Shown: positions 2,775 through 52,995 of the stretch, one piece after another | Numbering within the stretch: the stretch's first letter is position 1 | Layout: every line of letters starts with the position of its first letter | DNA from: Candidatus Latescibacterota bacterium | GTDB taxonomy: Bacteria > Latescibacterota > UBA2968 | Reading direction: 5' to 3' | Assembly (NCBI GenBank): GCA_965208125.1 | Contig: OZ242320.1 | Span: forward strand, 3,456,001-3,520,000 | Length of the DNA stretch: 64,000 nucleotides | The notes under the pieces: model-generated | The model's input: only the letters and a program-made list of their open reading frames with translations | What the model was told of the DNA's origin: nothing | Database searches by the model: none | Program-made: the position numbers and the translations under genes

Positions 2775-2845
2775 GGCATTCCCGCACATTATCCATTTAC
2801 TGATGTTACGCCGTTTATCTACAATGGGCTGTCATTAGAGAGAGG

Positions 2846-4174
2846 ATGAAAATGGATGCAAAAACCAAAAAGTTGCAGGTGGATCAGGCTGTGAAATCGC
2901 AGTCGCGACGGGCGTTTAAGCTGTCGCGGAGTATTCACGGCTGGGCAGAGCGGCCGTTTCAGGAATACGAGTCGTCAAAGGCGTTGGCGGCGTATTTGGA
3001 GGAGAACGGATTTCAAATTGAATTTCCGTTTAAAAAGATCCCGACGGCTTTTCGCGCCACATGGGGCACGGGCAAACCCATTATTGGCATGTTGGGGGAG
3101 TACGACGCATTGCCCAATTGCGGTGCCGAGGAGGGTACCTGGGGGCACGGCTGAGGTCATAATCTTTTGGGCGTTGCCCCGGCCGCAGGTGCGGTTGCTG
3201 CAAAAACAGTGTTGGAAAATTTGAAGTCGCCCGGTCAGATTATTTACTACGGCTGTCCGGCTGAAGAGACGCTGGCGGGCAAGGTGTATATGGCCCGCGA
3301 TGGTGCGTTTCGAGATCTGGATGCGGTGCTGGCATGGCATCCGGGATCGAGTACGGGTGTTAGTAATTATGGTGGTTCGTCGCTGGATTCGCTGGTGTAT
3401 GAGTTTTTTGGCAAGACGTCTCACGGCGCGAGTGCTCACAATGGGCGCAGTGCATTGGACGGGGTGATGTTGATGGATGTTGCGGCGAATTATTTGCGCG
3501 AGCATGTTCCCGAAAATGTGCGTATCCATTGTGTGATCCGTGACGGTGGGGATGCGCCCAATGTGGTGCCGGCTTATGCGAAGGTGTGGTACTATGTGCG
3601 TGGGAAGGATCGTGAACAGGTGAATAAAGTACGCAAGCGATTGACTAAGTGCGCCAAAGGTGCGGCGATGGCTACGGAAACAACTATGAAATGGCATCGT
3701 ATCACGGCTGTGTACCCGCGTTTGCCAAATGATGTGATGTGCGAAACTGTGCGCAAAAATCTCGAATTATTCGGTCCACCTCGTGCGTCAAAAAAAGATA
3801 AGGAACGCGTAAAGGAATTGGGATACAAAGGTGAATTTGACGGGAAGATCAAAAAGGGGAAGGGGTCGCAGGGGCGTGGGTCTTCGGATGAAGATAATGT
3901 GTCGTGGCTGGCACCGATGGGGCGGTTTCAGATGGTGTGTTATACCAAGGGCACGCCGGGCCATCACCGCGATATGACCGCACAGGCGATCATGCCTTAT
4001 GCCGAGCGCGCGGTTTTGCAAACGGCCAAGGTGTTTGCGGGATCGGCTATTGATCTGATTTTGGACAAAAAGGTGTTGCAAGCAGCGCGTGCGGAATTTA
4101 AGAAGGGAACGAAGGGGTTTGAGTACGATCCGTTGATTCCGAAACGCCAGAAGGTTCCCGTGGATCCTCCATAG
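2846..4174 (+). CDS. M20D/AbgB-like amidohydrolase with in-frame TGA (3152-3154); candidate selenoprotein of 442 aa
   Basis: ORFs 2846..3154 and 3167..4174 share a frame; readthrough gives EYDALP..GHG-U-GHNLLG, then GCPAEE, WHP, GSSD; RBS upstream of 2846. Confidence 0.8.
3174..3203 (+). promoter_or_regulatory. Putative bacterial SECIS hairpin
   Basis: Upper stem GGCCGC/GCGGTT with loop AGGT (3187-3190); lower stem TTGC/GCAA; 32 nt separate the TGA from the loop. Confidence 0.65.
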
Positions 4175-4180
4175 AAGGAG

Positions 4181-5179
4181 ATGGTCGTGAAAGCACAACG
4201 ATTAATATGCACAGATGTCCGGCGGATTGAATTAGAGGATTTTGAACTGCTGCGTGTGCCAGATAATGGCATTTTGGTGCAGAATGATTATACCGCTGTG
4301 AGTGTGGGTACGGAAATTTACAATTATGCACATGGGGGTGAACCGTCGCGTGCGAGAACATTTCCGCGGCCAACGGGGTATTGCAATACGGGTGTGGTGC
4401 TCGAGGTGGGCAAAGATGTGAAGGGGATAGAACCAGGTGATCGTATTGCCGCGCAGGGCAATCACGCCAGTCATGCGGTCATGAGCGGGAATTTTTTTAG
4501 AGTGCCCGAAGGTGTTTCGCCCAGGTCCGCGGCTTTTATGGTTATGTGTGCTATTGCCATGCACGGGCACCGGGTTGGGCGTCCGGAATTGGGTGAGGTT
4601 GTTGCAATTACCGGTATGGGTATTGTAGGCCAGTTGGCAGCGACCTTTGCGCGATTGGCCGGTGCGCTCCCGGTTATTGCGATTGATCTGGATGTTTTTC
4701 GGTTGGGTAAAGCGAGAGACAGGGGCGCAGATGTTTGTGTCAATCCCAATAATGCAGGGGATGTCGCCGAAGTGGTGCGCGAGCATTGCGTGGGCGATGG
4801 TGTCGATCTGGTTATTGAAGCGACGGGTATTCCGGCGGTTTATCCCATGGCGTTGACTTTGCCGCGGTTGGGAGGGCGTCTGGTCGCTTTGGGGTCTCCT
4901 CGCGGTACCGTGGAGGTTAGTTTTTTGCCCGAGGTTCATTTGCGCGAGATCACAATTCTGGGCGCGCATCAGCCCAAGACGCCGGATAATGACCATATTT
5001 ATTATCCGTGGAGTAAGCACAGAGATCGCGAACTAATTTTGCGTTTGATGGCTGCGGGCAAGTTGCCCATCGAAGATTTGATTACCCATGTTGTCAATCC
5101 CGCCGATTGCCAGGCTACCTACGATATGCTCGCCGATAATCCGAGAGAAGTGTTGGGCGTGGTATTTGAGTGGAGGTGA
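4181..5179 (+). CDS. MDR-family (zinc-binding dehydrogenase-like) oxidoreductase
   Basis: SVGTE, GMGIVG Rossmann motif, VIEATG. Confidence 0.85.
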   Translation: MVVKAQRLICTDVRRIELEDFELLRVPDNGILVQNDYTAVSVGTEIYNYAHGGEPSRARTFPRPTGYCNTGVVLEVGKDVKGIEPGDRIAAQGNHASHAVMSGNFFRVPEGVSPRSAAFMVMCAIAMHGHRVGRPELGEVVAITGMGIVGQLAATFARLAGALPVIAIDLDVFRLGKARDRGADVCVNPNNAGDVAEVVREHCVGDGVDLVIEATGIPAVYPMALTLPRLGGRLVALGSPRGTVEVSFLPEVHLREITILGAHQPKTPDNDHIYYPWSKHRDRELILRLMAAGKLPIEDLITHVVNPADCQATYDMLADNPREVLGVVFEWR

Positions 5180-6201: not shown

Positions 6202-6315
6202 ACGGGTTTGAGACACCAGTTTGGAGCTTTTTTCTTTGACAAGTTACTTTTGGGGCGCAATTATAGAGGTGCATAAATGCAGACCTACTGTTCAAAATAT
6301 TTTACGAGGTGATTG

Positions 6316-6813
6316 ATGGCTTTCAAGACTACTGATTTGTGCGATGAGCACGAAACCGATCCAGCACTTCAAGTTGCCGAACCGATATTCAATGACTATG
6401 GCGGCGTGATGGCATTTTGCGGTCCGATTGCCACGGTCAAAGTTTGCGAAGACAATGTGCTGGTGCGCGAGATCCTCGAAACCCCGGGCGAGGGGCGCGT
6501 TCTCGTCGTCGATGGCGAGGGCTCGATGTGGTGTGCGCTGTTGGGGGATATGGTCGCTGAAATCGCCAGTGACAATGGCTGGTCGGGGATTGTCATAAAT
6601 GGCGGTGTGCGCGATGTGTCTGAACTTGCACAAATTGGAATAGGCGTCAAAGCACGCTTTGCTGTGCCGCGCCGCAGCCGAAAAGAAGGCAAGGGCCGCC
6701 AAAATACGCCTCTTGCTTTTGCCGGTGTCGCCTTTCTTCCGGGCGATTATCTCTACGCCGATGAAGACGGTATTTTGATTGCTACGAGAGATTTGTTAGA
6801 CGCGCAGGATTGA
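6316..6813 (+). CDS. rraA: RraA family protein / HMG aldolase-like
   Basis: TTDLCD, EDNVLV, VVDGEG, ALLGD, YADEDG motifs. Confidence 0.9.
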   Translation: MAFKTTDLCDEHETDPALQVAEPIFNDYGGVMAFCGPIATVKVCEDNVLVREILETPGEGRVLVVDGEGSMWCALLGDMVAEIASDNGWSGIVINGGVRDVSELAQIGIGVKARFAVPRRSRKEGKGRQNTPLAFAGVAFLPGDYLYADEDGILIATRDLLDAQD

Positions 6814-52610: not shown

Positions 52611-52995
52611 TGGTGGAGGCGGCGGGAATCGAACCCGCGTCCGAAAGCGGTTTGATAACGGCATCTACGTGTGTAGTCTATTCACTTAGAATCTCGCACC
52701 TTGCGCCCCAACAGACAGGGTCGCTGAGGTGCCAGCTCGATGGTTGGGGCTGTGGCCCACTCTCATCCGGAGGCCCTCGAGCGGAAACCCCCGCACCAGC
52801 CTGCTCTCGTCGGCGCTCTGCCCAGACCACGCAGGCAAGGTCTGAGAGAACGGACTGCGTAACGTTTAGTTAGGCAGCCATTGCGTACGTGTTATCGTCC
52901 GCAGTTGCGTTTTTTCCCAATTGTTTTACGAGGTGATTGGGTACCTCGACACGCAGCTATTATCTCTCCACCCCCGTCGAAGCCATGTCGCCCCC
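52611..52995 (-). ncRNA. ssrA: tmRNA; tag reading frame 52902-52870 encodes ADDNTYAMAA
   Basis: 5' GGGGGCGACATGGCTTCGAC; 3' GGGTTCGATTCCCGCCGCCTCCACCA; tag ends in AA-stop. Confidence 0.95.

Follow-up and report, generated by a model that had tools for sequence, protein, structure and literature searches.

The gene described here lies in a 64,000-nucleotide stretch of DNA (the window) from the genome of a Candidatus Latescibacterota bacterium, which is assembled as one contig of 5.75 Mb (GenBank assembly GCA_965208125.1, contig OZ242320.1, positions 3,456,001 to 3,520,000), and very probably encodes an M20D amidohydrolase that carries selenocysteine (Sec) at its metal site. Two open reading frames (ORFs) on the + strand, 2846..3154 (102 amino acids, aa) and 3167..4174 (335 aa), share one frame, and the only stop between them is a TGA at 3152-3154. 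Read-through from 2846 gives a 442-residue protein (...EYDALPNCGAEEGTWGHG-U-GHNLLGVAPAAG..., that is GTWGHG-U-GHNLLG around the TGA) and the frame contains no further stops or frameshifts. In the mechanism that we favour, SelB with Sec-tRNA(Sec) would insert selenocysteine in response to the UGA at 3152-3154, with hairpins at 3169-3197 directly 3' of it as the signal, and the full-length product of ~440 aa would be a two-domain M20D metal amidohydrolase/dipeptidase. Sec would replace the motif cysteine of GH(G/A)CGH(N/D), a residue that in this subfamily binds both catalytic metal ions or forms a bridge between them. The metal centre, whose task is to activate water so that the amide bond is hydrolysed, would then be held by a selenolate rather than a thiolate. 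We hold this whole explanation, a SelB-decoded Sec in place of the metal-binding Cys of an M20D hydrolase, to be the best one with considerable confidence. As to its parts, a genuine selenoprotein gene is highly likely here, judging by the comparative evidence below, and the assignment of Sec as a metal-site ligand of a hydrolase, made by analogy with relatives, is somewhat less secure.

The initial annotation, made from the letters of the window, had described two same-frame ORFs split by a single TGA, and the frame and its translation bear this out. It had also listed the motifs EYDALP, PAEE, WHP and GSSD, all of which are found in the read-through protein, as well as a Cys (LPNC), which indeed lies 11 residues N-terminal of the TGA. 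Its reading of the gene as encoding a selenoprotein is now supported by a conserved UGA, by the pairing of Cys and Sec forms among homologues, by Sec machinery in the genome, by a constrained hairpin, by purifying selection and by the predicted fold. Of the gene limits it gave, the end at 4174 stands, and the start at 2846 is less likely than an ATG at 2852. In 62 of 69 Sec-form loci an ATG is found exactly 100 codons 5' of the TGA, behind a GGAGG-like ribosome site, and in the Cys homologues, which have a length of 440 aa, Cys is residue 101. These comparisons suggest that the ATG at 2852 is more likely than 2846 to be the true start, with a product of 440 aa. Residues are numbered below from 2846 (protein P0001), two residues longer than from 2852, and Sec is residue 103 (101 from 2852).

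Conservation of the TGA and its exchange with cysteine

An order-level search, covering 41 genomes from eight genera and two families with the source genome counted in, found an orthologue with one in-frame TGA in 39 genomes (71–100% identity); the two genomes of genus g7 contain distant paralogues only. All 39 orthologous genes were excised; the TGA occupies the identical codon within GHG-U-GHN in each of them, and each has TAG or TAA as its terminal stop codon. Across 168 genomes of the phylum Latescibacterota there are 64 matches at E <= 1e-100, with one TGA in 55 of them; in this phylum-wide search the TGA carriers comprise 30 of 30 in family f1, 18 of 22 in f2 and six genomes in f4. The nine matches without a stop are one at 68% identity and eight at 44–47%. 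From a collection of species genomes 80 loci were kept, 30 with TGA and 50 with TGC or TGT at this codon, and the 30 TGA loci are labelled mostly Candidatus Latescibacterota, some Gemmatimonadetes and one Planctomycetota. Thus independent homologues keep the TGA and close ones carry a cysteine codon.

The gene is also present, at ~94–96% identity, on contigs of four other public runs, all sponge metagenomes and two of them RNA libraries. At this identity, and with run match shares of 0.13–0.33, the contigs represent relatives and not the source strain. Among the 40 differences listed, out of 140, none falls within 3146-3204, and therefore none at the TGA itself. Since the TGA is kept in orthologues, in genomes across the phylum and in contigs of other runs, sequencing error and a private nonsense mutation are excluded.

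Database proteins show the other side of the Cys/Sec pairing. Among the 120 matches listed, 102 are full-length and all 102 have Cys at the aligned position, within GH[GA]CGH[ND] in 96 cases and within the variants GHGCGHH, GHACGHH, GHGCSHN, GHGCCHN or GPGCGHN in the remaining six. The other 18 of the 120 are products of 294–336 aa that start just after the TGA; they are Sec forms truncated by gene callers. NCBI names such truncated products 'peptidase dimerization domain-containing protein', and JGI names truncated Sec forms and Cys forms alike 'aminobenzoyl-glutamate utilization protein B'.

Selection acts on both sides of the TGA. In pairs with unsaturated dS, the ratio of non-synonymous to synonymous substitution rates (dN/dS) is 0.08–0.18 over the 100 codons before the TGA and 0.06–0.13 over the 339 codons after it, which is purifying selection in both halves (0.06–0.18 overall), and by this measure selection preserves the protein encoded in this frame on either side of the TGA. 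The terminal stops differ as well: TGA is the final stop in none of the 39 order-level and 30 collection Sec-form genes, whereas it ends 13 of the 50 genes of Cys forms. Perhaps a second UGA is avoided near a message bearing a Sec insertion sequence (SECIS), or the pattern may simply be due to shared ancestry.

The Sec/Cys history was examined with FastTree only, with the Sec/Cys column masked. In a tree of 100 genome-derived sequences, the 50 Sec forms make up a single clade, with a support of 99, that lies nested within Cys forms, and the neighbour of this clade is a Cys form from Latescibacterota. The fewest Sec/Cys changes needed are one on these 100 genome rows and four when 46 full-length metagenome Cys proteins are added; of these four at least two are forced by well-supported branches. 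Two Cys proteins that are 82–83% identical to the query (P0002 and P0003) fall inside a clade of 27 rows that is otherwise Sec. Because these two are nested in the Sec clade and at least two changes are forced, Sec and Cys have been exchanged more than once. The direction of the changes does not appear to be fixed by the tree, and Cys forms have partly similar nucleotides in the hairpin region. For a Cys-codon version with the exact hairpin sequence there were no matches in the metagenome contig collection; the contig of P0002 was not recovered in the follow-up scan.

Decoding machinery and the downstream hairpins

The source genome contains the complete set of genes that the initial annotation had asked for, namely selA, selB, selD and tRNA-Sec (selC), all above curated cut-offs. 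The selB gene (396 bits, cut-off 242) directly adjoins selA (578 bits, cut-off 268), and tRNA-Sec (Rfam, 70 bits) adjoins selD (365 bits, cut-off 125), which itself has one in-frame TGA in the motif SCGG-U-ASK. ARAGORN assigns tRNA-SeC (tca) as the sole tca anticodon among 49 tRNA genes and finds ordinary tRNA-Cys (gca) and tRNA-Trp (cca). As the initial annotation had remarked, other genes here end in TGA: it is the last codon of three of the seven neighbouring genes checked (1200-2774, 4181-5179 and 6313-6813) and, genome-wide, it is the commonest stop, terminating 1353 of the 3221 open frames that have at least 300 codons. On these counts the genetic code is not reassigned.

A rough scan of the genome for TGA-containing genes gave 45 candidates, mostly probably false, and six were inspected. 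Five match known selenoprotein families and one has no match. The first of the five is a deiodinase-like gene of thioredoxin fold (L145, G000:C1:1038881, +; FGSFT-U-PPF, PF00837 at 1.8e-29). Two others (L147, G000:C1:862254, -; L144, C1:640817, +) encode secreted proteins with an N-terminal thioredoxin-like G-U-xxC (UxxC) segment followed by DUF1573/HYDIN-type Ig repeats; one of the two is 1695 aa long with 14 repeats and both end in an EF-hand/dockerin-like segment. In-frame TGA codons are also found in genes of the UGSC family (PF24696) and of AhpC/TSA (W-U-PHC) (L148, G000:C1:1753143, +; L146, C1:5058587, -). Deiodinase-like, AhpC/TSA, UGSC and DUF1573 proteins are all families in the table of a 2026 review of prokaryotic selenoproteomes (PMC13188914). 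If selD is counted too, the selenoprotein genes of this genome number at least seven, and on this gene content the Sec machinery is evidently in use elsewhere in the source genome. The sixth candidate (L149, G000:C1:2198435, +) has a strong GGC-loop hairpin after its TGA but no Pfam match and an odd translated composition, and is probably a false positive.

Two adjoining hairpins follow the UGA of the amidohydrolase gene (Table 1). The strongest evidence for a SECIS comes from frozen synonymous sites: over codons +6 to +13 the codon entropy among 50 distinct Sec forms, for identical residues, is 0, 0.33, 0, 0.40, 0, 0.21, 0.14 and 0 bits. The mean of the best window, 0.125 bits, is the lowest of 108 windows, with a gene mean of 1.41 for conserved four-fold codons, and the same codons in 24 near Cys forms have 1.0–1.8 bits. 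The first hairpin falls inside this frozen window. The second fits the published bacterial SECIS (bSECIS) model, with a 4-nucleotide (nt) loop, a G at its second position followed by another G, a 7-bp stem and a spacing of 32 nt. Its energy is -9.4 kcal/mol as an 18-mer and -11.6 with the lower stem, and its consensus in Sec forms is CGGCCGY-RGGU-GCGGUYG. Of 48 distinct Sec forms, 46 have a hairpin at this site that conforms to the model (-9.3 to -11.4 kcal/mol), and over both hairpins 99.8% of cells are paired in 37 distinct Sec forms. A comparable hairpin with a GGU loop, AUCCAGC-GGU-GCUGGAU, occurs in selD of the source genome. Since the first loop is ACA in one Sec form, the second hairpin is favoured as the SelB binder, and it, rather than the first, is likely to be the SECIS core. 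Single-sequence energy does not pick this hairpin out, as positions 3140-3230 folded alone give a non-significant z of -0.62, and Rfam has no match within the amidohydrolase gene (the only one in the window is a tmRNA elsewhere). The helix that follows the metal ligand is rich in Gly, Val, Ala and Pro, and this may have predisposed the stretch to become a SECIS.

Fold, active site and alternative readings

The protein matches TIGR01891 'amidohydrolases' (198.4 bits, cut-off 153.75) and the M20 dimerisation domain PF07687 (31.5, cut-off 21). An AlphaFold model built with 30 homologues has a mean predicted local distance difference test (pLDDT) score of 93.1, and in this model the protein has a two-domain fold of a catalytic and a dimerisation/lid domain. 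The best Foldseek matches are PM20D2 (8zel/7yh4) and HmrA (3RAM), followed by CsAga (6SLF), 4EWT, 3IO1, YxeP and ILL2. The initial annotation had placed the protein with AbgB/ACY1L2-type M20D enzymes. The subfamily holds, as PM20D2, of which we take ACY1L2 to be an alias, and HmrA are the nearest structures. Orthology with AbgB does not: AbgB shares the broad family with the query, the match to the solved Abg protein 3IO1 has an E of just 8.6e-5 and no AbgA or second M20 gene adjoins (abgT was not searched for). Two more M20D paralogues are found in the source genome (G000:C1:3800376-3801320, -, and C1:3013598-3014545, -; 29% and 24% identity, no stops), making the Sec form one of three M20D genes there.

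The best sequence match among solved structures is HmrA of S. aureus (E 2e-41, ~27% identity; template-modelling (TM) scores 0.81/0.91 and root-mean-square deviation 2.2–2.8 Å in Foldseek), reportedly a Met-X carboxydipeptidase. It has GH-x-C-GHN, PAEE and H-P in common with the query and its motif Cys (GHACGHN) aligns with the TGA; it differs in having Cys and not Sec, and in lacking the 7-residue NCG..EG insertion that holds Cys92 of the query. Human PM20D2, a beta-alanyl-lysine/Xaa-Arg dipeptidase (7YH4, 8ZEI, 8ZEL, 8XZC), is the top Foldseek match and the second-best by sequence (E 6e-39 over residues 9–420), with the same motif set and its GHACGHN Cys at the TGA, but is a eukaryotic Cys enzyme of 26–27% identity that also lacks the Cys92 insertion. 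The literature search returned no paper on the metal site of PM20D2. In Arabidopsis ILL2, the Cys of HACGHD aligns with the TGA. CsAga, the N-alpha-acyl-glutamine aminoacylase of Corynebacterium (sequence E 3.6e-4, Foldseek E 2e-23), is an M20D Cys enzyme of 19–20% identity, and its bridging Cys is the putative counterpart of residue 103.

M20D enzymes have the ligand set Cys-His-Glu-His-His, in which Cys replaces the bridging Asp of other M20 enzymes. The corresponding residues, C/U103, H105, E140/E141, H165 and H373, are invariant in our alignment of 30 sequences (A1); we take the metal-ligand role of His105 from M20D generally, and Glu140 and Glu141 presumably supply the general base and a metal ligand. 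The relevant passages of an aminoacylase review place HmrA and CsAga in subfamily M20D and describe the Cys of CsAga as bridging two cocatalytic zinc ions (PMC11511702). By analogy with these enzymes, the selenolate most likely replaces the metal-binding or bridging thiolate. The substrate would probably be a dipeptide or an N-acyl amino acid.

Table 1. Features of the predicted selenoprotein gene, with positions in the window and residues numbered from 2846.
Feature	Position	Strand	Evidence
Purine-rich ribosome-binding site GAGAGAGG before ATG 2852	2838..2845	+	GGAGG/AGGAG at same distance in orthologues
Predicted Sec-containing M20D amidohydrolase, coding sequence	2852..4174	+	TIGR01891, PF07687, conserved ATG, AlphaFold model, Foldseek
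Cys92 (LPNC)	3119..3121	+	Invariant in A1; in 7-residue insertion that HmrA and PM20D2 lack
In-frame TGA, predicted Sec, residue 103, motif Cys position of GH(G/A)CGH(N/D)	3152..3154	+	Codon conservation in orthologues
His105, presumed metal ligand	3158..3160	+	Invariant in A1; aligned to motif His of HmrA, PM20D2 and ILL2
First conserved hairpin GGGC-GUU-GCCC	3169..3179	+	4/4 pairs invariant in 37 distinct Sec forms
Second hairpin CGGCCGC-AGGU-GCGGUUG, likely SelB-binding SECIS core	3180..3197	+	Apical loop 3187-3190, 32 nt after UGA
Glu140-Glu141 of PAEE, presumed general base and metal ligand	3263..3268	+	Invariant in A1; aligned to PAEE of HmrA, PM20D2 and ILL2
His165 of WHP, presumed metal ligand	3338..3340	+	Invariant in A1; aligned to His of HmrA, PM20D2 and ILL2
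His373-His374 (GHH), presumed distal metal ligand	3962..3967	+	H373 invariant, H374 >=90% in A1; putative role

Several points weigh against the interpretation of the gene as a SelB-decoded Sec metallohydrolase. The case for selenium insertion is a genomic one, and the RNA-library contigs cross the TGA, yet are no proof of transcription. Covariation in the hairpins is weak: nine of the 11 pairs never vary, one of the varying pairs is C-G or U-G, and the other is G-C, G-U, three times A-U and once an A.C mismatch, so that the sole two-sided pair change is the A-U in three sequences, with the one A.C mismatch beside it. The observed covariation score was reached by 33 of 500 shuffles. The bSECIS model is permissive, as some conforming hairpin occurs by chance in 11 of 50 Cys forms, and one Cys form (L154, 70% identity) has nearly identical nucleotides over the hairpin stretch; the hairpin may partly be a product of GC-rich Gly, Ala and Pro codons. 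On the protein side, the Pfam model of the catalytic domain, PF01546, stays below threshold on this protein (it is precomputed for many close homologues). The metal-ligand role draws on homology at ~27% identity, and the 7-residue insertion with its invariant Cys beside the site could alter the coordination.

This insertion is the basis of the alternative that survives best. Cys92 may serve as a further ligand or take part with Sec in redox chemistry, and in a reading that shares the insertion of Sec with ours but gives Sec a main role other than that of a passive metal ligand, the two would form a reversible selenenyl-sulfide switch or a soft-metal or substrate site, making the product a redox-regulated or chemically unusual enzyme. 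Such an arrangement would agree with the invariance of Cys92 in all 30 aligned members and its place in an insertion not found in HmrA and PM20D2, and also with the statement in PMC13188914 that Sec works as part of a Sec/Cys redox pair in most of the selenoproteins known. However, Cys92 is just as invariant in the Cys forms and so is not Sec-specific, and the other presumed ligands (His105, Glu140/141, His165 and His373) are intact. We therefore regard this reading as unlikely, though it deserves more weight than those that follow.

Could the TGA be a real stop, with a 102-aa fragment and a 335-aa protein made by re-initiation at a Leu or Val codon, and with the frozen bases serving that re-initiation? 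A TTG is at hand at 3167, the 18 truncated products among the 120 matches listed have just this form, and NCBI and JGI name them as ordinary proteins. But the restart codons vary (CTT TTG, CTC CTG, CTG CTG, TTG TTG) and many orthologues are without a usable start. The split would lose the motif Cys and part ligands that are found on one chain in every Cys homologue, and the frozen bases form hairpins rather than a ribosome site and lie 3' of the supposed start. Moreover, all 39 order-level orthologues preserve the reading frame through the TGA. Re-initiation is in our view very improbable.

Slightly less probable still is a selenium-free reading of the UGA, in which a suppressor tRNA or a near-cognate one would insert an ordinary amino acid (Cys, Trp or Arg). 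Cys would be functionally acceptable at the site; against this, the sole tRNA with a UCA anticodon is tRNA-Sec, tRNA-Cys and tRNA-Trp are ordinary, TGA is the commonest stop of the genome and the hairpin constraint is what SelB-dependent decoding predicts. Finally, a pseudogene or assembly error, that is a simple nonsense change without function, which one window by itself could not rule out, is in practice refuted by the conservation of the TGA, common to 55 genomes of three families (many of them single-contig) and to the contigs of four runs, and by dN/dS of 0.06–0.18 on both sides in a frame with no other stops or frameshifts.

Relation to known selenoproteins and surroundings of the gene

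The gene would be decoded by the usual bacterial route; its novelty lies in the protein family and in the chemical surroundings of the Sec, and the catalogues searched contain no selenoprotein of this type. Table 1 of the 2026 review lists 119 families and subfamilies, including those of Haft & Gwadz 2023, and contains no M20 peptidase, amidohydrolase or aminoacylase (PMC13188914). The terms 'amidohydrolase', 'peptidase', 'hydrolase', 'acylase' and 'M20' were looked up in surveys that comprise the 2026 review, deep-Sep, BSepDB, the GOS and Olavius studies and a 2022 review, and are absent from the available text of PMC13188914, PMC12013277, PMC13326102, PMC2398784, PMC1976440 and PMC9312934. 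A full-text literature search, with the supplementary tables of selenoproteome surveys outside its scope, found no paper on an M20 or amidohydrolase selenoprotein. The sole paper joining the terms, PMC5658510, deals with the absence of selenium genes and with an unrelated hippuricase, and PMC2937973 (Sapep) is not about the motif Cys. None of the selenoprotein-specific models in NCBIfam release 20 matches the query. The novelty that the initial annotation had suspected thus holds for the surveys searched, supplementary tables excepted; new selenoprotein families are still regularly reported, with nine in one 2025 paper.

The nearest parallels for Sec directly on a catalytic metal, as given in the review's entries, are the formate dehydrogenase alpha subunit (Sec-Mo/W) and the [NiFeSe] hydrogenases (Sec-Ni) (PMC13188914). 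They share with our proposal the decoding of UGA by SECIS and SelB. They are, however, redox enzymes with redox metals, whereas the query has a hydrolytic two-metal peptidase fold in which no redox step is expected. Sec outside thiol-oxidoreductases is also predicted, according to table entries of the 2026 catalogue, in a UshA-like protein, a CTP-synthase-related glutamine amidotransferase and the MerB-like lyase SaoL; compared at the level of these entries, they have other folds and motifs, and peptidase family M20 is not represented among them.

With few exceptions, the selenoproteins known so far are redox enzymes, and the metals bound by Sec in formate dehydrogenase and NiFeSe hydrogenase are redox-active. 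If our interpretation is correct, the enzyme would be a natural test of selenium at a Lewis-acid metal site in terms of ligand softness, pKa, metal choice and oxidation tolerance, for which the closely related natural Cys versions are ready controls. What the selenium might do is a matter of speculation: a selenolate-bridged hydrolase centre with altered metal choice or oxidation resistance, or a Se-S switch with Cys92, is a tentative suggestion to which we attach little weight. In either case these sponge- and coral-associated Latescibacterota would possess a selenium-dependent peptidase chemistry for which no counterpart has been described, and the repeated exchanges of Sec and Cys would point to a functional trade-off instead of neutral drift. 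The bacterial selenoproteome would gain a family, in a little-studied phylum with several other selenoproteins. Annotation is corrected as well: among the 120 database clusters listed, at least 18 represent truncated versions of this gene, and one of these truncated clusters has 217 member sequences.

The gene neighbourhood offers no clear clue to the substrate, and only a dehydrogenase in it is partly conserved. An AAA ATPase is found 5' of the gene, and a zinc-type dehydrogenase (ADH_zinc_N) starts 7 nt past its stop; a BD-FAE esterase, a RraA-like protein, a sulfatase and an aldo-keto reductase are also nearby. Conservation of the 3' dehydrogenase extends over the genus and a few relatives; the gene is found neither in other Sec clades nor in any of the 50 Cys loci. 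The AAA-ATPase gene (1200-2774, +) was matched in six genus-level loci of the species-genome collection, in some genomes only, and the contigs of the four other runs part from the window exactly upstream of 2852; this gene looks like a variable insertion. Elsewhere in the window, a tmRNA gene lies at 52611-52995 on the - strand (Rfam RF00023, 188.7 bits).

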